Under the pieces are notes generated by a model. The model saw only the letters and a list, made by a program, of their open reading frames with translations. It was not told where the DNA came from and did not search any database. Shown here piece after piece: positions 7,014-29,748 of a stretch of DNA of 42,335 bases (position 1 is the stretch's first letter; every line of letters begins with the position of its first letter). Both the position numbers and the translations under genes were made by a program. This stretch comes from an uncultured Nitrososphaerota archaeon (lineage in GTDB: Archaea > Asgardarchaeota > Njordarchaeia > Njordarchaeales > Njordarchaeaceae), in NCBI GenBank assembly GCA_964518475.1, contig CAZFGR010000015.1, positions 1 to 42,335 on the forward strand, in the 5' to 3' direction.

Positions 7014-7711
7014 AGGATATGAGAACGTTTAGAATTGGTATCTACTGCTTATCGTCCTGCGAAGGATGTGTAGTCCAGATACTGAATCTTGAAGAAAAGA
7101 TACTTGAACTACTTAACTATGCAGAAATCGTCGATTGTAGAGTGCTGGGAATTCAAAAAAACGAGAAAGTTGACGTAGCTTTAGTAGAGGGCTTTGTATC
7201 AAATGATGAGGAAGAAGAAAAACTGCGTAAAATTAGGGAAAAAGCAGAAATACTTATAGCGTTGGGGGATTGCGCGTGTTCAGGGGGAAGATTCCTAATC
7301 AAAGACTTCAACAACTCAGGAATAAGAGCAGATCCCATCGACAAAATTGTTAAAGTTAATTATTACTTATGGGGATGCCCAATAGATAAGGAAGAATTCT
7401 TACACTTACTAAAGGATGTACTTCACGGAAAAAAGCCAAGAGAAGTAAGTAAGACAGTATGTTCAGAATGTATTCTCTATGAAAGAGAATGTCTGCTTGA
7501 TAAAGGTATCCTCTGCTTAGGACCCATTACAAGAGGCGGCTGCCATGCTCTCTGTATCCAAAATGGCAGGAACTGCTTCGGTTGCAGAGGCCTAAGCGAT
7601 GATGCCAACATCGAGGCCTTTATAGAGATTCTACGCGAGAAAGGGATCACCCCACCAGAATACTTATTCAAAATGATGGAGTTGAGGAGGTATGAGAGGG
7701 AAAACCGTTAA
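7010..7711 (+). CDS. hydD: Group 3b hydrogenase small (delta) subunit
   Basis: CEGC, VEG, GDCACSGG, GCP, and distal CSEC..CLGP.TRGGC.ALC..CFGCRG. Confidence 0.9.
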   Translation: MKDMRTFRIGIYCLSSCEGCVVQILNLEEKILELLNYAEIVDCRVLGIQKNEKVDVALVEGFVSNDEEEEKLRKIREKAEILIALGDCACSGGRFLIKDFNNSGIRADPIDKIVKVNYYLWGCPIDKEEFLHLLKDVLHGKKPREVSKTVCSECILYERECLLDKGILCLGPITRGGCHALCIQNGRNCFGCRGLSDDANIEAFIEILREKGITPPEYLFKMMELRRYERENR

Positions 7712-8981
7712 GGCTAAAGAAATCACGAGAATTGAGGGACATCTCGACCTAGAAGTAATAATCTCGGAAGACAAGGTAAGGGCTAAAGCAATGGCTAGAG
7801 AAGGTACCAGAATCCTAGAAAAAGTACTCATAGGTAGGGACTATTGGGAGATTCCAGAAATTGCCTCTAGAATGTGTGGAGTTTGCAATGCCATTCACAA
7901 GGTAACAGCTGTTATGGCTATAGAAAACGCTTTGGGCATAGAGCCATCCCCAGATATACAGCTCATCCGCGAATTAATAGTTATTGGAGGGCATATACAG
8001 AGCCATATTCTGCATTTGTTCTACTTCGTACTTCCAGACTACTTGGGAACCAGTAGTATAATTAATAATATTATGAGGAATAATTTAGAAATAGTCCGCG
8101 ATGCTATGCGTGTAAAGAAGTGGGCAAATGAACTTGTCGAGAGATTCGGAGGGAGGGCTGTTCATCCCGTTACTCCTGTGGTTGGTGGGTTGAGCAAGTT
8201 ACCTACTCGTGAAGATGTTCTCAAGGTGCTTAAAAAGCTAAAAGATGTTAAAAATGTTGCTAATAGGCTCGTTGAATGCTTGTTAGAGAGGAGTTTTCTC
8301 GATTTTCCAGCCGAGAAAAACTTTGTATCTCTTAGAGAAAGCAACGATGTGCCATTACTTCGTGGCTTTGTAAGCATTTGTGGTGAGAATGTGGTTTCTG
8401 AGAATTATCTTAGTTATGTAAAGTGTGTTATTGAGGAATACTCTACAGCACCGCACTTCGTTCTACGGACCAATGAATCATTTATGGTGGGGGCTCTAGC
8501 GAGACTGAATCATAATCATGAAAACTTGACGGAGTTAGTGAAAGAGCTGTGCGCGAGATACAATATTGGATTCCCGAACCAAGCTGTTTTCGCAAATAAC
8601 CAGGCACAAGCTTTAGAAATTATGCACTTTATCGAGAAGGCAGAAGAAATCCTGACTAGATTTGCAGAGAAGAATAGTATTGGGGCATATTCAAGAAGTG
8701 TAGAGGGAAAACAAATCGGTATCGCTGTCACTGAGGCACCCAGAGGATTACTAATCCATCAATACGGTATCAACGAAGAAGGAAAAATAACTCTAGCTAA
8801 TATAATTACCCCAACAGCTCAGAATCTCAAAAGCATTGAAAGAAGGACTGAAGATCTCGTTAAAGAATTCCTAACCAAGGGAATAGATATAGAAAATCTA
8901 AGAAAAGAAATTGAAAAACTTGTCAGATCCTACGATCCATGCCTATCATGCGCTGCACGATTTAAGAAAATACAGCAATAG
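7692..8981 (+). CDS. hydA: Group 3b [NiFe] hydrogenase large (alpha) subunit
   Basis: TRIEGH, L1 RMCGVCNAIH, GGRAVHP, EAPRG, L2 DPCLSCAAR plus 6-aa extension. Confidence 0.92.
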   Translation: MRGKTVKAKEITRIEGHLDLEVIISEDKVRAKAMAREGTRILEKVLIGRDYWEIPEIASRMCGVCNAIHKVTAVMAIENALGIEPSPDIQLIRELIVIGGHIQSHILHLFYFVLPDYLGTSSIINNIMRNNLEIVRDAMRVKKWANELVERFGGRAVHPVTPVVGGLSKLPTREDVLKVLKKLKDVKNVANRLVECLLERSFLDFPAEKNFVSLRESNDVPLLRGFVSICGENVVSENYLSYVKCVIEEYSTAPHFVLRTNESFMVGALARLNHNHENLTELVKELCARYNIGFPNQAVFANNQAQALEIMHFIEKAEEILTRFAEKNSIGAYSRSVEGKQIGIAVTEAPRGLLIHQYGINEEGKITLANIITPTAQNLKSIERRTEDLVKEFLTKGIDIENLRKEIEKLVRSYDPCLSCAARFKKIQQ

Positions 8982-9113
8982 ACATAAAAATTTGCACATT
9001 TTTTCCAACACTTTTCTCCATAAGATGCTTCTGTATCAATAGTTTTGAGTATTTAGTACTTCCTTATGGATGCATGACCTTGCCAACTTCATAGTGTCTC
9101 GGAGGGATAAGTA

Positions 9114-10280
9114 TTGTTTTCTAAGAGAGTAAAGGAGATGAAATTCCCCTCCCTTTATGACATAGCAGAACTAGCGCGTGGGTTAGAGGATGTTATTTAC
9201 CTAAATGTTGGGGAACCGGATTTCACAACTCCTTCTCATATAATAGAGGCCGCTAAAGAAGCTATGGATAGGGGATTTACCCACTACACATCGGATGAGG
9301 GGATCCCAGAGCTGAGGGAAGCTGTAGCTGAGTACTACAACGAGAGGTATGGATCCGATTATACGAAAGAGAATGTATTAATTACTGTGGGAGCGACGCA
9401 AGCGATCTTTGCGGCAATAATGGCGCTAGTTAATGAGGGAGAAGAAGTAATCGTGCCCGATCCTTGGTATCCAGGATACTTGAGATCGATAATATTGGCT
9501 GGTGGAAAATTTCTCACGGTTAAGCAGGATGAGAAAAATGAGTACCAGCTTGATGTTGACGAGTTAAACGAGAAGATCTCAGAAAAAACTAAGGCTCTAA
9601 TCCTTATAAACCCTAATAACCCCACAGGATCATTGCTGAGCAAAGAACAATTAAAAAGTATTGTCGAGATTGTCAGCGATCATAAGCTATTCCTAATAGT
9701 TGATGAGATTTATGATAGATTCGTTTACGAAGATCGTTTCCACAGCATTGCGGAATTTCCAGAGATTCAGGAGAGAGCGATAATCATAAATGGTTTCTCG
9801 AAAGCCTATGCCATGACTGGGTGGAGAATAGGTTACGCCATCGCAGAGAAGGAAGTTATAAAAGAAATGCTCAAAGTAACCTTAGCTTCTGCTTTATGTC
9901 CCATATCCATAGCCCAGTACGCAGCATTAGCAGCTTTGAAAGGTCCTCAAGAAGTTGTTGACGAATTTGTTAAAGAATTTGACAAGCGTAGAAGAGTCAC
10001 AATGGATGAGTTATCAAAGATAAAGGGGATAAAGTTTGTGAAGCCTAGGGGAGCATTCTACATCTTCCCAAACGTGGGAGAATATAAAATGGATGAAGTT
10101 GAGCTAGTCAAGTACTTGGTCAAAGAAGCTAGAGTTGTTGTATCGCCAGGATACCCATTCTTCGGACCAGGCGGGAAGAATCATATAAGAATAGCTTATA
10201 CCTTAGACACAGAGAAGTTAAGAGAGGCTGGGAGAAGATTGAGAGAAGCGTTCCATAAACTCCTAGAGAAAACCTCATGA
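9114..10280 (+). CDS. PLP-dependent class I/II aminotransferase (aspartate/aromatic type)
   Basis: GEPDF, NPNNPTG, DEIY, SKAYAMTGWRIG motifs. Confidence 0.92.
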   Translation: MFSKRVKEMKFPSLYDIAELARGLEDVIYLNVGEPDFTTPSHIIEAAKEAMDRGFTHYTSDEGIPELREAVAEYYNERYGSDYTKENVLITVGATQAIFAAIMALVNEGEEVIVPDPWYPGYLRSIILAGGKFLTVKQDEKNEYQLDVDELNEKISEKTKALILINPNNPTGSLLSKEQLKSIVEIVSDHKLFLIVDEIYDRFVYEDRFHSIAEFPEIQERAIIINGFSKAYAMTGWRIGYAIAEKEVIKEMLKVTLASALCPISIAQYAALAALKGPQEVVDEFVKEFDKRRRVTMDELSKIKGIKFVKPRGAFYIFPNVGEYKMDEVELVKYLVKEARVVVSPGYPFFGPGGKNHIRIAYTLDTEKLREAGRRLREAFHKLLEKTS

Positions 10281-19364: not shown

Positions 19365-19826
19365 ATGAAAGTAGGAATCATTAGAGACAAAAAATATGAT
19401 TTTTCTAAACTTCTCCAAGGATTAAAATCCTCCGAAAACATTTGGAAATGTGGTGCTATAGTCTCCTTTATCGGAATGGTTAGGGGAGTAGGAAGAGACG
19501 GATCTAAGGTAAAGAAATTAGTTTACGAGGCCGCGGATGAAATAGTTATTAAAGAGCTTAATGAGATAAGAAGAGAAATTCTAGAGAAGTATGAGGGCGT
19601 GCATGAAGTTCTCATATACCACTTCGTCGGAGAAAGAGAAGTAGGGGAAGACACAATATACATTTTAGTCGCAAGTGAGCATAGAGAGGAAGGATTTAAA
19701 GCAGCGAGAGAAACACTCGAACTCGTGAAAGAAAGAGTCCATATATGGAAAAAAGAAATCACAGAGAAAGGAGCTTACTGGATAATGGGCGAAGAACAGG
19801 TAAAGGTAGAGAATTCCAAATCATGA
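19365..19826 (+). CDS. moaE: Molybdopterin synthase catalytic subunit
   Basis: GAIVSFIGMVR, LVYEA, H..G...VGE, HREEGF, VKERVHIWKKE. Confidence 0.92.
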   Translation: MKVGIIRDKKYDFSKLLQGLKSSENIWKCGAIVSFIGMVRGVGRDGSKVKKLVYEAADEIVIKELNEIRREILEKYEGVHEVLIYHFVGEREVGEDTIYILVASEHREEGFKAARETLELVKERVHIWKKEITEKGAYWIMGEEQVKVENSKS

Positions 19827-20066
19827 TCCTATTCATAGAATTAGTCCTAGCATATTTTAGTTGTCTGGGAAATTTTTAAGAGAATCTTCGCAGGTTTAGG
19901 TCTAATATTGTAGCTTAGAACATTGAGTTTTAATAGATTTTTCTCTTCCCAAAAATGGTCCTTTGGTCTTGTTATCTGCTTTTTTGTAGTTTTGTGGTGC
20001 GGAAATTTTTATATAATTTTTTTCATGTACGGTTATATGACAGTTGTCATATAGGTGTGTTATAGA

Positions 20067-20663
20067 ATGCTGGCTTACGTCACGTTGATTGCTGCTCTCA
20101 TATACTTTATAGCCGCGATATACGGCTATACCAGAAAACAAGGGGTTGATTACTTCTTCTGGATAATCTCAAGCCTGAGCTTCCTTATAGTAGCTGGAGC
20201 ATTGGCGGTAATGGGTCTAGCTGCTCTAGAACAACCATACACACCATTCATAGGTGCTTTATACCCAGCATTCCTAGCAATCGGGATCCTATATAGGCTA
20301 CGAGATACTTGGTGGAAGTACTATTTGGGTTTCGTAGTGGTAATGATGATCCTAATGGCTGCGGGTTACAGTGTAGTATACCCAAGTCTTAGTGTTGGAG
20401 CCGAGGTGTTACTTCATACATTATCAGGACTCATAATTGTGTTCTTACCAATAATTAAGGTTCTGACTAAAGAGTGGAGCTATGAGTATCTGGTAATTAC
20501 TATAGGAGGAATAGTTATTGGTATTGGCGGCTTAGCTCTAGCAAGTATAGTCGCGGGCGCACCCATCCTACCTCTAGAATTAGTGATTGCTCTCTTGCAT
20601 CCCATATTAGCTCTCTCCGCCCTACTCATAGCTATTGGAGTATATTTAATAATAGAGAAATAA
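20067..20663 (+). CDS. Polytopic (~7 TM) membrane protein, unknown function
   Basis: Almost entirely hydrophobic; intramembrane LLHTLSG and GGLALA; ATG 20067 follows AGGTG. Confidence 0.7.
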   Translation: MLAYVTLIAALIYFIAAIYGYTRKQGVDYFFWIISSLSFLIVAGALAVMGLAALEQPYTPFIGALYPAFLAIGILYRLRDTWWKYYLGFVVVMMILMAAGYSVVYPSLSVGAEVLLHTLSGLIIVFLPIIKVLTKEWSYEYLVITIGGIVIGIGGLALASIVAGAPILPLELVIALLHPILALSALLIAIGVYLIIEK

Positions 20664-20727: not shown

Positions 20728-22116
20728 GTGATCATTTTGAAGAGGATAAAATTACACATTCTTATTGTAGCAACAATTTTCGCTCTCACAGTAGGTTTCT
20801 ACATTCTCTTGTCTCCACCAATGACACAGATAAGATCGGCTCTAGGTCTTCCAAAAGAGCTCCCAGGAGCTAGATATAATGCCACTGTCGGGGGTGCGGA
20901 GATCATTAATCCGTATGAAGGAGAGACCTACTTAGGCAGAATAACCTTTGTTTACCACAGCGTCTTCATAATTCTCTTATACGCTACATTGATAATATTC
21001 GCTGGCAAATATCTGGACGAGAAAATAGGGAATCTAGTCCTCGATTTAGCGGCTATCTCAACCATAATAGTGGTTGCTAGTGCTATTCTTTACGGATATG
21101 TGTCCAAAAATTTCTTCTGGCACGGCACTTTCATAGCTGGTTTAGCAATGTTCTTCCTTATAGGTCTCATAATCATGCTTAATTTCAAACCAAGAGATCT
21201 GCTTGAGTGGAACATCTGGATAGCAGGGATCTTTCTCCTAATAGGGGGGATCTGGGGTGCTTGGTTAGGTTCAAGTTTTATGCATCATAGATCTGAGTTC
21301 TTGGAAGCATTGATAGCTTCTAGATTCAACCCAGATCTCGCAGAAGAAGACTTGTACTGGAGGGCGCTAACATCTCATGAACATGCAATGATAGCGATAG
21401 CATTAGCTCTAGTATTCTTCCTAGCCCTTTCCATAAATAGGCCTAAGGAAAATGCAAAAATGCTTCTTGTATTTACGCCTCAGAGACTTTATCTCCTAGG
21501 TATCCCGGCCCAGATATTCATGGCAGCTGCTTGCTACAGTGTTACATTCTTTGGAGGAAAAACCCACCTCGTAATCACACCTGCGGCACTTATACTCATA
21601 TCAGTTACTCTACTTCTAAGCCTCTCAATGGAGAGAAATGATCTATTGAAAATTGGGGCAGTGATATCAAACCTAGCAGTATGGCTTGGAGTAGCTATAC
21701 CAGGAGCTATCGCAGCAATGAATCTCCGAGAAGCACGCTTTATCTACTCATTGCCCATCAGACATCCTAGCTACGACTGGCTGGAACTGGCCTATAATAT
21801 CGGGCACTGGCACCTACTCCTATTAACGTGGGGCATAGCTCTCTTGATAATCTATATCGTATGGCCAGAAAACATTACAGAGAAGAATAAGCTGTATTTT
21901 TGGATAGGAATAATTGGGCTCATCGGCTACTTAATAGCTATGCTGGGAACCAATCTCTACATGCTAGCTAATCCTCCCCAACCCTACACCCCAAACCCAT
22001 ACAATAACAGATGGGTAACTCTACTAGTAGAGCCAGGGCTAACGCTCCTAACAATAGCTGTAGGGTTAGTTTACTTATACTACCTCCTAGATTTTCTAAA
22101 GTCTTACAGAACTTAA
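20728..22116 (+). CDS. 12-TM His-rich membrane protein, heme-copper oxidase subunit I/NnrS-like architecture
   Basis: About 12 hydrophobic segments; His in TM2 (YH77), TM6 (H217-x-H219) and TM10 (H360-x-H362); the fold assignment is inferred. Confidence 0.55.
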   Translation: MIILKRIKLHILIVATIFALTVGFYILLSPPMTQIRSALGLPKELPGARYNATVGGAEIINPYEGETYLGRITFVYHSVFIILLYATLIIFAGKYLDEKIGNLVLDLAAISTIIVVASAILYGYVSKNFFWHGTFIAGLAMFFLIGLIIMLNFKPRDLLEWNIWIAGIFLLIGGIWGAWLGSSFMHHRSEFLEALIASRFNPDLAEEDLYWRALTSHEHAMIAIALALVFFLALSINRPKENAKMLLVFTPQRLYLLGIPAQIFMAAACYSVTFFGGKTHLVITPAALILISVTLLLSLSMERNDLLKIGAVISNLAVWLGVAIPGAIAAMNLREARFIYSLPIRHPSYDWLELAYNIGHWHLLLLTWGIALLIIYIVWPENITEKNKLYFWIGIIGLIGYLIAMLGTNLYMLANPPQPYTPNPYNNRWVTLLVEPGLTLLTIAVGLVYLYYLLDFLKSYRT

Positions 22117-22167: not shown

Positions 22168-22614
22168 CTAATTTTTGTTCCTTTCTTCCAGTCCGAGGAG
22201 ATAAGATCCAAAAAGTTCGCGACATAGAGTGCATGTTTTAGGGTCGATATTCTCTATCTGACTATGGAATTGGCAGATCTCTCCACGGCCCATGGCTTTG
22301 AAGACTATCGTGGCTAACCGATACTCCAGTTCCTCTGGTTCGAGGTCACTCTTTGCGATGATTTCGGCAAGTTCTTTGAGTTCTTTCATTGTTTCCGTGG
22401 CTTTTGTGATATCTAAGTATCGCCCTCGACTCCCTCTAATATATCGGGAAACAGCTGACTGGGTAATATACAATTTTCTTGCAATTTCTTTTTGCTTGAA
22501 TTTCTTCTCGTAATATAATATCTCGACAAGCTTTTTCCTTATTGAAGGATAAACGTAGTTAGATATAATGTTGAGTAATTTCATATCAATCCTCAAATGA
22601 CTCGATTTGTTCAT
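22168..22614 (-). CDS. Archaeal HTH transcriptional regulator (COG2522-like) with C-terminal Cys/His cluster
   Basis: P.IR..LV..L....FKQKEIARKLYITQSAVSRYI.G.RG HTH; C-terminal CQFH...CTLC. Confidence 0.8.
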   Translation of the reverse strand: MNKSSHLRIDMKLLNIISNYVYPSIRKKLVEILYYEKKFKQKEIARKLYITQSAVSRYIRGSRGRYLDITKATETMKELKELAEIIAKSDLEPEELEYRLATIVFKAMGRGEICQFHSQIENIDPKTCTLCRELFGSYLLGLEERNKN

Positions 22615-22775: not shown

Positions 22776-25466
22776 ATGGGCGAGATGATAGAAATGTCAA
22801 AAGATAAGAAGTATGTCTATGATTTCGAGGAAGGAGGAGAACATCTCCGCCATTTATTAGGAGGAAAAGGAGCTGGTTTGGCGGAAATGACCCGAGCAGG
22901 CCTACCAGTCCCTCCAGGATTCACTATCACAACAGAAGCTTGTAGGGAGTATTACCGTAGAGGTCCTAAATTCATCGATGAGATCTGGCCAGAGATTATG
23001 GAACATTTCCACAAATTAGAGGAGAAAACTGGTAAAAAGTTTGGGGATAAGAATAATCCATTACTAGTCTCTGTAAGATCTGGTGCTCCAATTTCTATGC
23101 CTGGGATGATGGATACAATCCTGAACGTTGGTCTAAACGATGAAACCGTCGAGGCTCTAGCAAGATTAACTAATAATCCAAGATTCGCCTATGATAGCTA
23201 CCGACGACTCATCCAGATGTTTGGATCCATTGTTATGGGAATCGATAGAAGAAAGTTCGAGGAGGCACTAGAAGAGATTAAGAAGAAGTATGGAGTCAAG
23301 CATGATGCAGAGCTACCCGCGGAAGCTATGAAGGAGGTTGTGGAGAAGTTTAAAGAGATTTACAAACGAGAAACAGGTGAAGACTTTCCCCAAGACCCAT
23401 TTGTCCAGTTAAGAAGAGCTATCGAGACAGTGTTTAAGTCCTGGAACAATCCCAGAGCTATAAAGTATAGAGAAATCCATAAGATCCCCCATGATATGGG
23501 CACAGCGGTTAATGTCCAGATGATGGTTTTCGGAAACTTTGGATGGGATTCTGGAACTGGTGTATGCTTCACAAGAAATCCCTCAACGGGCGAAAAAGAG
23601 CTATATGGAGAGTTCCTACCCAATGCACAGGGAGAAGATGTAGTGGCAGGGATTAGAACACCAATGTCTATCAAAGAGCTGAAGGAAAGATTACCTAAAA
23701 TATATGAACAACTAGTTAAGGTTGCTGAACTATTAGAGAGACACTATAAGGATATGCAAGACATTGAGTTCACTGTAGAAAGAGGAAAACTCTGGCTACT
23801 ACAGACAAGAACCGGTAAGAGAACAGCATTAGCAGCTATAAAAATCGCAGTAGATATGGCTAAGGAAGGAATAATCACGAAAGAAGAGGCTATCCTACGT
23901 ATAACGCCCGAACAGCTTCAGCAATTATTGCACAGACAGATCGATCCAAAAGCGAAGGAGACTCATAAACCGATTGCTAGGGGATTACCAGCATCTCCCG
24001 GAGCAGCTGTTGGAAAAGCAGTGTTCACATCTGAGGAAGCTGAGGAACTCGGTAAGAAGGGTGAAAAAGTAATACTTGTACGACCAGAAACTACGCCAGA
24101 CGATATTGGCGGTATGGCTGCTGCTCAGGGAATCCTCACAGCTAGGGGTGGGATGACTTCCCACGCCGCCGTAGTTGCTAGAGCTATGGGTAAACCGGCA
24201 GTTGTAGGGGCTGAGATGATTCAAATAGACCTTGAGAAGGAAGAGTTTAGAGTCGGAGACATTGTTGTTAAGAAAGGTGACATCATTACAATTGATGGAA
24301 CAGCTGGAGAAGTTTATGTGGGTGAGTTACCTACTATTGAGCCTAAGTTGACTCCGGAGGCTTTAGAGCTTCTCTCCTGGTGCGATGAATTCAGAAAGCT
24401 TGGTGTAAGAGCAAACGCTGACACTCCCGAGGAGATGAAAAGAGCTCTAGAATTCGGTGCGGAGGGTGTAGGACTAGCAAGAACCGAGAACATGTTCGTC
24501 AAGGGTGGTCGTACGGATATTGTGTACGAGATCCTACTGGCCGAAACTACTGAGGAAAGAAGAAAAGCACTGGAGAAGCTGATTCCATTGCAGAAACAAG
24601 ACTTCAAAGAAATGTTAGAGGTAATGGATGGTAAACCAGTTATTATAAGATTACTAGACGTACAGTTCTACGCGCTCGTGTTTGCTGATCCAGAACAGCT
24701 CATCGAACAATACTACAAGAAGAAGTATGAGGAGAAAGCCAGTCCAGAAGAACTTGCTAGGCTAGCGAGAGTAATCCAGAGAGTAAGAGCAATAAGAGAT
24801 GCAGACCCCCAGATGGGATTCAGAGCTTGCCGATTAGGAATCGTTTACCCAGAGGTCTATGAGGCACAGATGAGAGCAGCTATGGAGGCAGCAGCGGAAC
24901 TAAAGAAGGAAGGCAAGAATCCAATACTTGAGATAATGGTTCCAGGCACTGCAGAGCCAAATGAGCTAAGATTTATCAAAGAGATTTTCGAGAAGGTAAA
25001 GAAGGAGGTCTCAGAGAAATATGGAATAGAACTCAATGTGTTATATGGTACAATGGTTGAGTCCCCGAGAGCAGCTATTCTAGCAGACGAGCTCGCCGAA
25101 GTATGCGACTTTTTCTCATTCGGTACAAACGACCTGACGCAGTTCACATTCGGTTGGTCCAGAGATGATGCTGAGAGGGCATTTATCCACGCATACATTA
25201 ACAAGAAGATCTTACCGTACAACCCATTCCAGACATTAGACGATAAAGGAGTCGCCAGATTAATGGAGTGGGCTGTTCAAAACGCAAGAAAGGTCAAGCC
25301 AAATATTGAGCTAGGCATCTGTGGAGAGCATGGTGGAGATCCAAGAAGCATAGAGATATGCCACAAGGTAGGACTAGATTATGTCTCAGCATCCCCATGG
25401 AGAATACCAGTAGCGAGACTAGTAGCAGCCCAAGTCGCTATAAAAGAGAAGCAACAGAAACAATAA
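22776..25466 (+). CDS. ppdK: Pyruvate, phosphate dikinase
   Basis: GGKG, SVRSGA..SMPGMMDT, QGEDVVAG, DIEFT, phospho-His GGMTSHAAVVA, GTNDLTQ, GICGEHGG; some pyruvate-domain motifs diverge (see findings). Confidence 0.92.
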   Translation: MGEMIEMSKDKKYVYDFEEGGEHLRHLLGGKGAGLAEMTRAGLPVPPGFTITTEACREYYRRGPKFIDEIWPEIMEHFHKLEEKTGKKFGDKNNPLLVSVRSGAPISMPGMMDTILNVGLNDETVEALARLTNNPRFAYDSYRRLIQMFGSIVMGIDRRKFEEALEEIKKKYGVKHDAELPAEAMKEVVEKFKEIYKRETGEDFPQDPFVQLRRAIETVFKSWNNPRAIKYREIHKIPHDMGTAVNVQMMVFGNFGWDSGTGVCFTRNPSTGEKELYGEFLPNAQGEDVVAGIRTPMSIKELKERLPKIYEQLVKVAELLERHYKDMQDIEFTVERGKLWLLQTRTGKRTALAAIKIAVDMAKEGIITKEEAILRITPEQLQQLLHRQIDPKAKETHKPIARGLPASPGAAVGKAVFTSEEAEELGKKGEKVILVRPETTPDDIGGMAAAQGILTARGGMTSHAAVVARAMGKPAVVGAEMIQIDLEKEEFRVGDIVVKKGDIITIDGTAGEVYVGELPTIEPKLTPEALELLSWCDEFRKLGVRANADTPEEMKRALEFGAEGVGLARTENMFVKGGRTDIVYEILLAETTEERRKALEKLIPLQKQDFKEMLEVMDGKPVIIRLLDVQFYALVFADPEQLIEQYYKKKYEEKASPEELARLARVIQRVRAIRDADPQMGFRACRLGIVYPEVYEAQMRAAMEAAAELKKEGKNPILEIMVPGTAEPNELRFIKEIFEKVKKEVSEKYGIELNVLYGTMVESPRAAILADELAEVCDFFSFGTNDLTQFTFGWSRDDAERAFIHAYINKKILPYNPFQTLDDKGVARLMEWAVQNARKVKPNIELGICGEHGGDPRSIEICHKVGLDYVSASPWRIPVARLVAAQVAIKEKQQKQ

Positions 25467-26263: not shown

Positions 26264-28504
26264 ATGCAGCCAGCAGTGTATGCTGTGATTATAGGGATTA
26301 TTGGACTAGTTTTCGTTCTTTGGCTAAGAAAGTGGGTTCTGAGCCAAGAAGCGGGTACTGGAAAAATCCATGAAGTGCATTCTTGGATTAAGAGCGGTGC
26401 GAGAGCTTTTCTTGAGCGTGAATTTATAACAATAAGCTATTTCATCATCGCAATAGTTGTTGGCTTATGTATCATATCCTACGCGGGCATCATCGCTTGG
26501 GAGATTCCAATCGGTTTCGTGATCGGTTCTTTATCATCTTTGCTAATGGCATGGCTGGGAATGGAGACAGCAACAGACGCGAATGTTAGAACAGCACAAG
26601 CCGCTAGAAAATCTCCTGATAAAGCATTAATGATAGCTATCAGAGGCGGAGCAGTCACTGGTCTCTCCTTAATGTCTATAGCCATAATCGGTATTGGCAT
26701 CTTATATCTGTTATTCGGTGATCCTGCATTAGTTGTTGGCTTTGGCTTCGGTGCTTCTCTAGCGGCTCTCTTTGCTCAGTTAGGTGGAGGGATCTACACA
26801 AAGTCAGCCGACGTTGGAGCTGATTTAGTGGGGAAAGTAGAGAAAAAACTTGAGGAAGATGACCCAAGGAATGCTGCAGTGATTGCTGATCTTGTAGGAG
26901 ATAATGTGGGAGACTGTGCTGGCAGGGCTAGCGACTTGTTCGAAAGCTTCTCAGATAATATAATAACTATGATGATTGTTGGAGCCTTTCTAGCTTCGAT
27001 AATGTTTCCAGAATATAGCATAATTATCATAGACCTAGCGTTAGTGCTTCAAGCAATGGGATTAATAGCTAGTATCGTGGGAGTCTTAGCGATTAGAGGA
27101 AAAGAACCCATCAAGGCTATCTATCAAGGCTTCTTCCTAACAGGAATCCTACTCGTTATCGGATTCTACATTATACTGAGAATAATGATTCCGCCAGAAG
27201 TATTTGCTCTAGTAGGAGATCCTGGGCTGGGCACTAGGTTATGGATAGCGACGATGCTTGGAATGCTTGGAAGCTTGTTAACAGCGATAATCGTATGGTA
27301 TTATACTGGGCCCACCAACAAGCCCGTGAAGAATATTGCTGAGATGGCTAAGGGTGGTCCGGCAATCGATATCCTCTCTGGATTATCATGGGGTATGGAG
27401 AGCGTAGTTCCAGCAGCTATAGTGGTAGCGTTTATCACGGTAGCTGCATTTTACTTAGTAGCTGGCGAGTTTAATCTCAGCGGATTAGCTGGTATTAAAG
27501 GATTATTCGGTGTAGCAGTAGCTACTCTAGGACTACAAACAATGGCTGGTATAATCCAGACCTCAGATACCTTCGGGCCAATCGTAGATAATGCTGATGG
27601 TATAGCCACCATGGGTGGTATATCTGAAGAAGTAGGTACATCGCTCGAAAAACTTGACTCTGTCGGTAACATGACGAAGGCCTTAACAAAGGCTTACGGA
27701 ATGGTCTCCGCCCTACTAACATCCCTATCGATACTTTTCGCATTAATAGCTGATTATATTGACACAGCGTTGGAGCTTGGCATAATTCCAACTCCTCAAG
27801 GAAAAATAACCTTCGAGTACATACTACAGATAGCAAATGTAAACATGCTGATTCCAGAACTGATAGCTGGTCTAATAATGGGTATTGCTGTTCCCTACGT
27901 CTTCACAGCATGGGCGATAGGCGGAGCGGTCAGAGGGGCTTTCGAAATGGTTAATGAGGTACGAAGACAGTTTAGAGAGAATCCTGCGATCCTGGAGGGC
28001 AAAGCATTACCAGATTATAGAAGAGCTGTTGATATTGCGACAAGATATGCATTATCAGAAATGATTATGCCCACCACTCTCGGTCTCTTCACGCCTATAC
28101 TGATCGGTACTCTATTCAACATATGGGTACTAGTGGCTTACTTAATAGGTCTGAAGATATCCTCAGCATTATTAGCTATGTTCCAATTCAATACAGGAGG
28201 CCAATTAGATAATGCGAAGAAGCTAATTGAGATTGCAGGTAAGAAAGGTACCGAAGAACACGCCGCAGCCGTGGTCGGTGATACTTTCGGGGATCCATTA
28301 AAGGATACCTCAGGCCCCTCGCTCCACATACTGATAAAACTCTCCAACATATTCAGCATAACCATGATCCCCTACTTCATATGGCTTGAGAGAATAGGAG
28401 ATCTCTCACTAAGAATGCTACTAGCGATAGGTATTGCAATTATATGGATAATCGTAGCCATAATCGCCAGATACTTGAGAAAAAGAACTCAAGTATCCCT
28501 CTAA
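26264..28504 (+). CDS. hppA: Membrane-bound ion-translocating pyrophosphatase, K+-independent type
   Basis: GGGIYTKSADVGADLVGKVE, EDDPRN, DNVGD, GPIVDNADG, GDPLKDTSGP; GNMTKA carries Lys at the K+-dependence position. Confidence 0.95.
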   Translation: MQPAVYAVIIGIIGLVFVLWLRKWVLSQEAGTGKIHEVHSWIKSGARAFLEREFITISYFIIAIVVGLCIISYAGIIAWEIPIGFVIGSLSSLLMAWLGMETATDANVRTAQAARKSPDKALMIAIRGGAVTGLSLMSIAIIGIGILYLLFGDPALVVGFGFGASLAALFAQLGGGIYTKSADVGADLVGKVEKKLEEDDPRNAAVIADLVGDNVGDCAGRASDLFESFSDNIITMMIVGAFLASIMFPEYSIIIIDLALVLQAMGLIASIVGVLAIRGKEPIKAIYQGFFLTGILLVIGFYIILRIMIPPEVFALVGDPGLGTRLWIATMLGMLGSLLTAIIVWYYTGPTNKPVKNIAEMAKGGPAIDILSGLSWGMESVVPAAIVVAFITVAAFYLVAGEFNLSGLAGIKGLFGVAVATLGLQTMAGIIQTSDTFGPIVDNADGIATMGGISEEVGTSLEKLDSVGNMTKALTKAYGMVSALLTSLSILFALIADYIDTALELGIIPTPQGKITFEYILQIANVNMLIPELIAGLIMGIAVPYVFTAWAIGGAVRGAFEMVNEVRRQFRENPAILEGKALPDYRRAVDIATRYALSEMIMPTTLGLFTPILIGTLFNIWVLVAYLIGLKISSALLAMFQFNTGGQLDNAKKLIEIAGKKGTEEHAAAVVGDTFGDPLKDTSGPSLHILIKLSNIFSITMIPYFIWLERIGDLSLRMLLAIGIAIIWIIVAIIARYLRKRTQVSL

Positions 28505-28710
28505 AACCCTATCCCTATACAATAGATCCTAGAGTAACCAATCCCTTATTTTTCTCCAAAAATTCTCCTCTCGAAAACAGAAATGATAGCTCAAATTCTG
28601 AGAAAGATGAATATATCTTATTCGATGATAAATTAGGATTAGCCAGAAGATTAAAATATAGTTATGTTATTTTTATTTTCTCTGCGAAGTTAATTTTCGG
28701 GTGTATTTGT

Positions 28711-29748
28711 TTGGTTAAAAAGGTTTTATTAGAGAAGTTTGAGGGTAATCCTATCCTTAAGCCTAGAAGTGGTTGGGAGAAGGAAGCTGTTTTCAATCCT
28801 GCAGCCTTCTTTTTCGATGGAAAGGTCTTCCTTTTCTACAGAGCTAATGGAGATTGGAGTGAAGCTATATCTCGCCTAGGAATTGCTTGGAGTCGGGATG
28901 GTTATCATTTCGAACGGTTCGGAGAACCTATTTTCGAGCCAAAACTGGATTTTGAGAAATGGGGTATCCAAGATCCTAGGACTACGATAATTGGGGACAC
29001 CCTGTATATGACGTATGTTGGTTGTCCTGGGAGATGCGATCCGCCTTTATCGATCCTTGAAAAAATGGGTTTGCCGAGAGAGGAATTTGAGAGGATCGTG
29101 GCTGAGAAGAAGGGTACTATTCCGCGTATAGGTCTAGCATCCCTGAAACTAGAATTCTTAAAAGAACCAACAAAAATTAAAAACAAGTTCATTAGGTATG
29201 GTCCTATAACTCCTCCTGACGTTCATCAAAGAGATGCGGCCTTATTTTCTGAGAAAATTAACGGTCTCTACGCTATGGTTCATAGACCAAGAAATTGGGT
29301 AGGGCCCGAATATGGTACGCATGCACCCAGCATATGGATAGGCTACTCTAGAGACTTAATTAACTGGGGTAATCATCGAATAGTAATGAGGCCTAGGGAG
29401 AATTGGGAGAGCGAAAAAATAGGCGCTGGCCCTCCTCCCATAAAGACGGAGAGGGGTTGGTTACTAATTTATCATGGAGTTGATGATAAGCATGTTTACA
29501 GAGCAGGAGCGGCCCTACTAGACCTAGATGATCCCTTAAGGGTTATCGGTAGGCTGAGTTATCCGATTCTTGAGCCTAAAGAAGATTATGAGAGAATAGG
29601 TGTTGTACCTAATGTCGTTTTTCCAGAAGGAGCCGTTGTACTCAATGGCGAGTTATTTGTATATTATGGAGCTGCTGATAAGTACTGTTGCGTAGCTACA
29701 TGTGATCTCGAGGAATTATTAGATGCGTTAGAAGAATCTGGAGAATAG
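28711..29748 (+). CDS. GH130-family glycoside phosphorylase/hydrolase (5-bladed propeller)
   Basis: NPIL.P, VFNPAA, YRA, QDPR, HRP, KIGAG.PP, YHGV, NVVFP.G, YYGAAD. Start moved from 28444 to TTG 28711 (GGGTGT upstream; avoids overlap with hppA). Confidence 0.88.
   Translation: MVKKVLLEKFEGNPILKPRSGWEKEAVFNPAAFFFDGKVFLFYRANGDWSEAISRLGIAWSRDGYHFERFGEPIFEPKLDFEKWGIQDPRTTIIGDTLYMTYVGCPGRCDPPLSILEKMGLPREEFERIVAEKKGTIPRIGLASLKLEFLKEPTKIKNKFIRYGPITPPDVHQRDAALFSEKINGLYAMVHRPRNWVGPEYGTHAPSIWIGYSRDLINWGNHRIVMRPRENWESEKIGAGPPPIKTERGWLLIYHGVDDKHVYRAGAALLDLDDPLRVIGRLSYPILEPKEDYERIGVVPNVVFPEGAVVLNGELFVYYGAADKYCCVATCDLEELLDALEESGE

Follow-up and report, generated by a model that had tools for sequence, protein, structure and literature searches.

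A 42,335-nt contig from an uncultured archaeon of the Njordarchaeaceae (Asgardarchaeota), whose genome is 91% complete with a size of 2.33 Mb, was analysed over its whole length (the window). On the forward strand, positions 20728-22116 contain an open reading frame (ORF) of 462 residues, which encodes a protein with 12 transmembrane (TM) helices. Structural modelling and comparison confirmed that the modelled protein adopts the fold of subunit I of heme-copper oxidases (HCOs) and nitric oxide reductases (NORs), with the 12 helices arranged in three 4-helix repeats. It has a His on helix II and keeps the HxH that these enzymes carry on helix X; helix VI bears another HxH, and helices IV and VIII each have a single His at their outer start. 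HCOs have a central part in aerobic respiration and denitrification, and whether an O2 reductase or an NO reductase came first in their origin is under debate. The 12-TM family lies outside every described HCO or NOR family and is filed here as a divergent variant within the HCO structural superfamily. We propose with moderate confidence that it is a new, deeply divergent branch of this superfamily acting as a heme/metal redox enzyme, which would probably make it a membrane redox enzyme of a new type, belonging to organisms that do not respire oxygen.

The AlphaFold2 (AF2) model was built from the family alignment, with neither templates nor HCO sequences, and has a predicted local distance difference test score (pLDDT) of 91.6 and a predicted template modelling score of 0.92. 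With residues numbered from the listed ORF start at 20728, the translation contains His at positions 10, 77, 132, 186, 187, 217, 219, 280, 346, 360 and 362, and Glu at 435. The model places H77 in TM2, H217 and H219 in TM6 (motif SHEHAM), and H360 and H362 in TM10 (GHWH), with spacings of 142 residues between H77 and H219 and 143 between H219 and H362. The original prediction, made from the sequence alone, had given the 12 helices, the His positions, both spacings and both motifs, and all of these were borne out by the translation and the model. H132 and H280 sit 4 residues into TM4 and TM8, respectively, and E435 sits 8 residues into TM12, whereas TM7 (residues 251-275) contains no His. The His residues under study and E435 lie in one layer, 2-9 residues below the outer-face helix boundaries. 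Similar to HCOs, the short loops on the N-terminal side are rich in Lys and Arg.

Searching known structures with the program VIA-align yielded subunit I of HCOs or NORs at all of the best 10 places, with Z scores of 16.2-23.0 and matches covering model residues 1-462. The best match was CcoN of the cbb3 oxidase (3mk7_A), with a Z score of 23.0 and a root-mean-square deviation of 3.8 over 385 aligned residues, which brings residues 1-462 of the query onto residues 8-465. It is followed by cNOR (4xyd_A, Z 22.6) and then by A-type, B-type and qNOR chains at Z 16-20; the next unrelated fold has a Z score of 12.1, leaving a gap of 11 Z units. The best 50 matches in Foldseek are also all HCOs or NORs, with TMq of 0.55-0.59 and weak E values of about 1e-3. 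The nearest structures in the ESM Atlas include a COX1-bearing cluster, and a named-cluster search of the same resource gave only sub-threshold matches. The proposal that the protein belongs to the HCO fold was thus upheld by two structural searches. Its likeness to NnrS was not, as far as sequence goes: no Pfam family matched the protein at E values up to 10. NnrS (PF05940) is a putative heme-copper 12-TM protein with conserved His and a proposed role in NO stress, and we know of no solved structure of it.

Similar to CcoN, the protein shows the full-length subunit I fold as a minimal 12-helix core with no extra C-terminal helices; TM2 and TM6 bear His and TM10 an HxH, spaced much as in CcoN. 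The two proteins share about 10% identity, and several elements differ: the query does not match PF00115, has neither an HH pair on helix VII nor the cross-linked Tyr motif, bears an HxH on TM6, has additional invariant His where TM4 and TM8 begin, and has no CcoO or CcoP cytochrome c subunits nearby. Comparison with the reductases NorB and qNOR (4xyd_A, 3ayg_A and 6fwf_A) gave the same fold with Z scores of 22.6, 16.8 and 16.2, and a plausible anaerobic chemistry other than O2 reduction would be a further likeness. Unlike these reductases, the protein lacks the canonical FeB site of three His and a Glu, the NorC subunit and the N-terminal qNOR extension.

At the sequence level no family was matched in Pfam (PF00115 COX1 included) or NCBIfam, and searches of the PDB with the protein and with its profile matched no HCO. 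Block-wise profile comparison nevertheless revealed remote homology to the HCO repeats. An HCO alignment made of E. coli CyoB and eight archaeal COX1 proteins from genomes carrying the family was used, and both proteins were cut into their three 4-helix repeats and compared by hhalign. Repeat 3 of the query matched HCO repeat 3 (TM9-12) with an E value of 6.3e-5 and a probability of 65%, placing H360 and H362 on CyoB H419 and H421. Repeat 2 of the query matched the same HCO repeat even better (E 1.7e-6, 90%), with H217 and H219 on CyoB H419 and H421; the helix X-type HxH anticipated in the original prediction therefore occurs twice. Control comparisons with reversed HCO blocks and with an unrelated 7-TM alignment gave E values of at least 0.037. 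Repeat 1 of the query gave no significant profile alignment with the HCOs, and its H77 is invariant on TM2. Compared over the whole length, hhalign gave probabilities of only 17-44% and preferred a shift by one repeat. A circular permutation was considered for this shift and not accepted, given the likeness that HCO repeats 1 and 3 show to each other.

The canonical HCO repeats 1 (TM1-4) and 3 match each other by hhalign with an E value of 1.7e-6, a sequence trace of the internal triplication of the fold. The repeats of the query resemble one another weakly, with E values of 5.6e-4 for repeats 2 and 3, 3.6e-3 for repeats 1 and 2, and 0.018 for repeats 1 and 3, and share the elements R-[FY]-N...A-E...W...H-x-H. 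The protein had been described as more symmetric than known HCOs; this holds for the pattern of ligands and fails for the repeats as a whole, which are no more alike than those of HCOs.

The gene belongs to a real family that, judged from its alignments, is under strong selection on a His-rich site. Searching 5.8 billion proteins gave 62 clusters of homologues, all of about 440-490 residues, unannotated or labelled 'hypothetical', and none with a Pfam domain. An alignment of 56 sequences has a mean column identity of 52% and 43 invariant columns. H77, H132, H217, H219, H280, H360, H362 and E435 are all invariant, as are Y76, Y124, Y411, R71, R199, R212, R345, E353 and W361. Seven of the 11 His of the query fall on the 43 invariant columns (hypergeometric P = 9e-6), and the invariance of His is therefore beyond chance. 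In the full-length distant members (E values down to about 1e-14, e.g. from Hodarchaeales and Infirmifilum lucidum), the seven His persist at near 20-25% identity, together with Y76, Y124, Y411, R71, R345 and E353, and position 435 is mostly Asp or Glu. The conservation of these His, proposed as a check in the original prediction, is thus found in both the core and the wider family. An exhaustive profile search of 1.84 billion representatives returned only 88 proteins. In addition, two distant subfamilies carry C-terminal fusions, P0105 (785 residues) with an FGE-sulfatase-like domain and P0131 (777 residues) with PD40 beta-propeller repeats. A literature search found no description of the 12-TM family, and a paper may still exist.

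The resemblance to HCOs could in principle be an artefact of a generic 12-helix bundle, or the gene a decayed oxidase that has lost its function. The blindness of the Pfam COX1 model to the protein, the weak Foldseek E values and the low whole-length hhalign probabilities fit such a view. Against it stand the Z score of 23 over 385 residues, well separated from the next fold, the block-level E values of 1e-6 versus at least 0.04 in the controls, and the 43 invariant columns with their seven His, which are shared across Thermoproteota, Archaeoglobi, Korarchaeota and Asgard lineages. Invariance across several archaeal phyla indicates strong purifying selection instead of decay, and we regard an artefact as very improbable.

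Comparison of the putative ligands with those of canonical HCOs shows what is kept, lost and added. H77 (codon 20956-20958) lies on TM2 within the full-length structural match and would correspond to the heme-ligand position of HCO helix II if the helices are in register. H360-W-H362 on TM10 (21805-21813), supported by the repeat 3 alignment on CyoB H419-F-H421, is the counterpart of the HCO helix X HxH. In HCOs this HxH points into two pores and ligates both hemes, and the helix II His completes the low-spin heme. On TM6, H217-E-H219 (21376-21384) is a second helix X-type HxH by the repeat 2 alignment and replaces the HPxVY motif of the CuB site. The helix VII HH pair is also absent; the nearest candidate is H280 (21565-21567) at the outer TM7/TM8 turn, which is probably near the helix VII HH site of HCOs in space. 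The original prediction had already noted that the HPxVY motif, the HH pair and any neighbouring subunit II or cytochrome c were missing, and our analysis agrees on all three. H132 (21121-21123) at the start of TM4, within the motif HGxFxxGLxxxFxxG, is invariant among the core members and stays conserved when the wider family is included. E435-P436 on TM12 (22030-22035) is invariant in the core family. The suggestion that H132, H280 and E435 occupy equivalent positions at the starts of the fourth helices stands as to their invariance, and their equivalence is approximate, because the internal repeat alignment pairs E435-P436 with T284-P285 and not with H280.

Relative to CyoB of the A-family bo3 oxidase, the query has the profile homology of its repeats 2 and 3 to repeat 3 of the CyoB alignment described above and the same fold (Z 18.7 to 1fft_A). 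It lacks the GHPEVY motif with H284 and the pair H333/H334, has NPPxPYxPNPY in place of R481/R482, and is not accompanied by subunits II, III and IV. To our knowledge all HCO families described so far keep six canonical His, every known HCO contains a bis-His b-type heme, and the third pore is empty in every known HCO or NOR.

Two HxH His at i and i+2 on one helix cannot chelate one ion, and those of HCO helix X serve two cofactors on opposite faces. With the helices in register, the three pores would hold H77 and H362 as ligands of a bis-His heme, H360 with one TM6 His and H280, and the other TM6 His with H132. If H77 is instead symmetry-equivalent to H219 and H362, two sets of three His and one His/Glu set would result. 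Based on the in-register arrangement, we propose a mechanism in which H77 and H362 hold a b-type heme and a second heme has H360 as its proximal ligand. The distal side of the second heme would be a non-canonical site built from one helix VI His and H280, which may bind a non-heme metal or serve as direct sixth ligation. The pore that known HCOs leave empty would hold an additional site, made by H132 and the remaining helix VI His. Electrons would most likely enter from membrane quinol, or through a 7-TM partner protein where present, since no subunit II is found beside the host gene. The qNOR enzymes illustrate that this fold can run from quinol without a separate subunit II. Among 50 related loci, no cluster of cupredoxins or cytochromes c was found either. 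The protein might then reduce NO or an oxygen species, as a small diffusible oxidant, near the outer face, in a role that would be protective rather than respiratory and controlled by adjacent sensor or regulator genes.

Several observations weigh against this proposal. The residue-level register of H77 is ambiguous, and the whole-length profile comparison favours the shift by one repeat. The Arg pair of loop XI-XII, which binds the heme propionates in HCOs, is missing, and CyoB R481/R482 align on an NPPQPY segment that is part of a conserved Pro/Asn/Tyr-rich loop (NPPxPYxPNPY). The host genome and its two closest carriers (G007 and G008) show none of the four markers COX1, cytochrome bd, HemB and HemC. 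The gene neighbourhood is variable and gives a weak signal, since neither nitrogen-cycle nor quinone genes lie near the family in a consistent way, and the runs listed for the stretch include no RNA run.

The lack of COX1 and cytochrome bd fits an anaerobe, as had been supposed for the host. The lack of HemB and HemC is no argument against heme, because carriers without both still encode cytochrome bd and/or COX1. Among the 48 carrier genomes, HemB was found in 24, HemC in 24 and neither in 22, while cytochrome bd occurs in 25 and COX1 in 22, including many that lack HemB and HemC. Only the host genome, G007, G008, G020, G004 and G048 lack all four markers, and 43 of the 48 have heme synthesis or heme enzymes. 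The host itself carries a QmoC-like gene on contig C6 (L060:1342-2490, reverse strand; NF038018 with an E value of 4.8e-62, below the equivalog cut-off), whose product has an HdrC-type domain with two [4Fe-4S] clusters fused to an HdrE/NarI-like membrane domain, and which belongs to a di-heme b family. The argument that an organism without heme biosynthesis cannot have a heme protein here was rejected on the basis of these two observations. The combination of cytochrome bd or COX1 with absent HemB and HemC was observed in the carriers G011-G019, G022, G026, G029, G032, G037 and G003, and suggests that these lineages scavenge heme or make it by an unrecognised route.

These data bear on an alternative in which the HCO fold contains no heme at all. 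The seven His, with E435 and a conserved Tyr, would form two or three sites within the membrane that bind Fe, Cu, Zn or Ni, and the protein would be a metal transporter, a metal handling or insertion factor, or a non-heme metalloenzyme. The four markers missing from the host and its nearest carriers fit this alternative, as does the absent propionate Arg pair. The repeat symmetry would group H77, H217 and H132, then H219, H360 and H280, and finally H362 and E435; and a distant subfamily carries a fused FGE-sulfatase domain, whose class uses Cu or Fe. On the other hand, the two-heme scaffold, made of a His on helix II and the HxH on helix X, is just what the protein appears to keep, most carrier genomes use heme and the host has the QmoC-like gene, the absence of HemB and HemC does not predict the absence of heme enzymes in these archaea, and we know of no HCO-fold protein without heme. 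We consider a heme-free protein unlikely, and heme, the more likely cofactor of the 12-TM protein, is a plausible candidate.

If heme is bound, the protein might still be a non-catalytic electron conduit, with two or three bis-His b hemes carrying electrons from the quinone pool or the 7-TM partner to an acceptor at the outer face and no active site for a small molecule. H77 and the HxH on both TM6 and TM10 would be enough to ligate two or more bis-His hemes, neither the CuB/FeB triad nor the cross-linked Tyr motif is present, and half of the lineages have a membrane partner gene. However, the His all lie in one layer near the outer face and do not span the membrane, H132 and H280 are invariant though bis-His hemes would not need them, and no conserved gene for a redox partner at the outer face was found in the related loci. 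A pure conduit is improbable on balance, and a heme/metal redox enzyme remains our preferred reading.

The partner gene lies directly upstream of the 12-TM gene, at 20055-20663 of the forward strand, and encodes a 7-TM membrane protein of 202 residues with an invariant H121; its probable start is an ATG at 20068 preceded by GGTG. In the 22 loci that hold both genes, the 7-TM gene is directly upstream on the same strand and often abuts or overlaps the 12-TM gene, and wider clustering finds its family in 24 loci. Among the 48 carriers it occurs in 26 and is interrupted in three of those. An obligate partnership was therefore rejected, and the 7-TM protein is regarded as a facultative operon partner. 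The truncated or stop-interrupted copies (L003:190-636, L016:615-1040 and L006:7703-7963) each adjoin an intact 12-TM gene. The AF2 model of the 7-TM protein (pLDDT 94.9) is a generic 7-TM bundle resembling G-protein-coupled receptors and rhodopsins, with Z scores of 11-14 and a best of 13.9. A role as subunit III or NorE is not supported by this generic bundle, and no cytochrome oxidase subunit III occurs among its best 50 matches.

A TATA-box-like TTTATATAA lies upstream of the two-gene unit at 20008-20016 of the forward strand and may act as its promoter. The 12-TM gene itself probably starts at TTG 20737, three codons downstream of the listed start, because GGTGA is found 8 nt before this TTG and the N-terminus of the homologues is three residues shorter (consensus MDxxxxH); residue numbers may then be 3 lower than those given here. 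On TM8 (21565-21624), T284, T294 and S298 roughly share the helix face of H280, and position 284 stays polar (Thr, Asn or Tyr) in distant family members. This face is reminiscent of the K-channel on HCO helix VIII, a comparison that is speculative.

Downstream of the 12-TM gene, a convergent gene at 22168-22614 of the reverse strand encodes a helix-turn-helix (HTH) regulator with Pfam HTH_3 and MarR-like matches and a C-terminal CxxH...CxxC motif (CQFH...CTLC). Its homologues are found near a 12-TM family gene in two other loci (L009 and L043), and a link to the two-gene unit is possible. The flanking genes for MoaE (19365-19826), a pyruvate phosphate dikinase/phosphoenolpyruvate-utilising enzyme (22776-25466), a H+-pyrophosphatase (26264-28504) and a GH130 phosphorylase (28444-29748) serve ordinary metabolism and do not recur beside the family elsewhere. 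Denitrification genes, including NorQ and NorD, and NorC were not found among the neighbours in the related loci. HTH_10 regulators adjoin the family gene in 6 loci, and a gene with DUF438, hemerythrin and PAS_10 domains is divergent from it in 6 Thermoproteota loci and one Heimdall locus (for example L009:4565-5899, L007:10235-11548 and L050:1905-3122, all on the reverse strand). The product of this gene may sense a gas, iron or the redox state on behalf of the unit. An ABC transporter occurs in 8 loci and a molybdopterin oxidoreductase with ferredoxin in 4, and various metabolic genes recur as well, none of them being general. In L009, a very hydrophobic protein of 496 residues without a family match (7410-8900, reverse strand) and an ABC ATPase (8906-9646, reverse strand) are convergent to the family gene, an arrangement seen in eight loci.

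The family is archaeal, unannotated and found mostly in thermophile lineages. Its carriers belong to Thermoproteota (including Aeropyrum, Pyrodictium, Thermofilaceae and Desulfurococcales), Archaeoglobi, Korarchaeota-related lineages, Caldarchaeum and Geoarchaeota, and to Njord- and Heimdall-related Asgard archaea. Cultured hosts with a member of the family are Archaeoglobus sulfaticallidus (Asulf_01925), Pyrodictium delaneyi and Infirmifilum lucidum (IG193_00740). Among 201 sampled genomes of the host phylum, 25 contain a match; close homologues in this sample are confined to the host genus, where three of seven genomes have one. The DNA of the window occurs in sediment and hydrothermal-vent metagenomes.

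The 12-TM family thus combines the HCO fold with only the two-heme part of the HCO ligand set, a duplicated HxH on helix VI, no copper site and no subunit II. It is spread over several archaeal lineages including Asgard archaea and occurs in genomes without a known oxidase. If the cofactors are bound as proposed, the chemistry of the HCO scaffold would be wider than described, the family would provide a testable outgroup for rooting the HCO superfamily, and the protein would be a candidate for the unexplained tolerance of anaerobic thermophilic archaea to NO or O2. A further reading, which we consider unlikely, is that the family is a three-site relative of HCOs in strict anaerobes, with the ancestral threefold layout of ligands, a heme or metal cofactor in each pore including the one that is empty in known oxidases and NORs, and no copper site, and thus a surviving pre-oxygen form of the scaffold. 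If this were true, the family would show what the fold did before O2 or NO reduction evolved.

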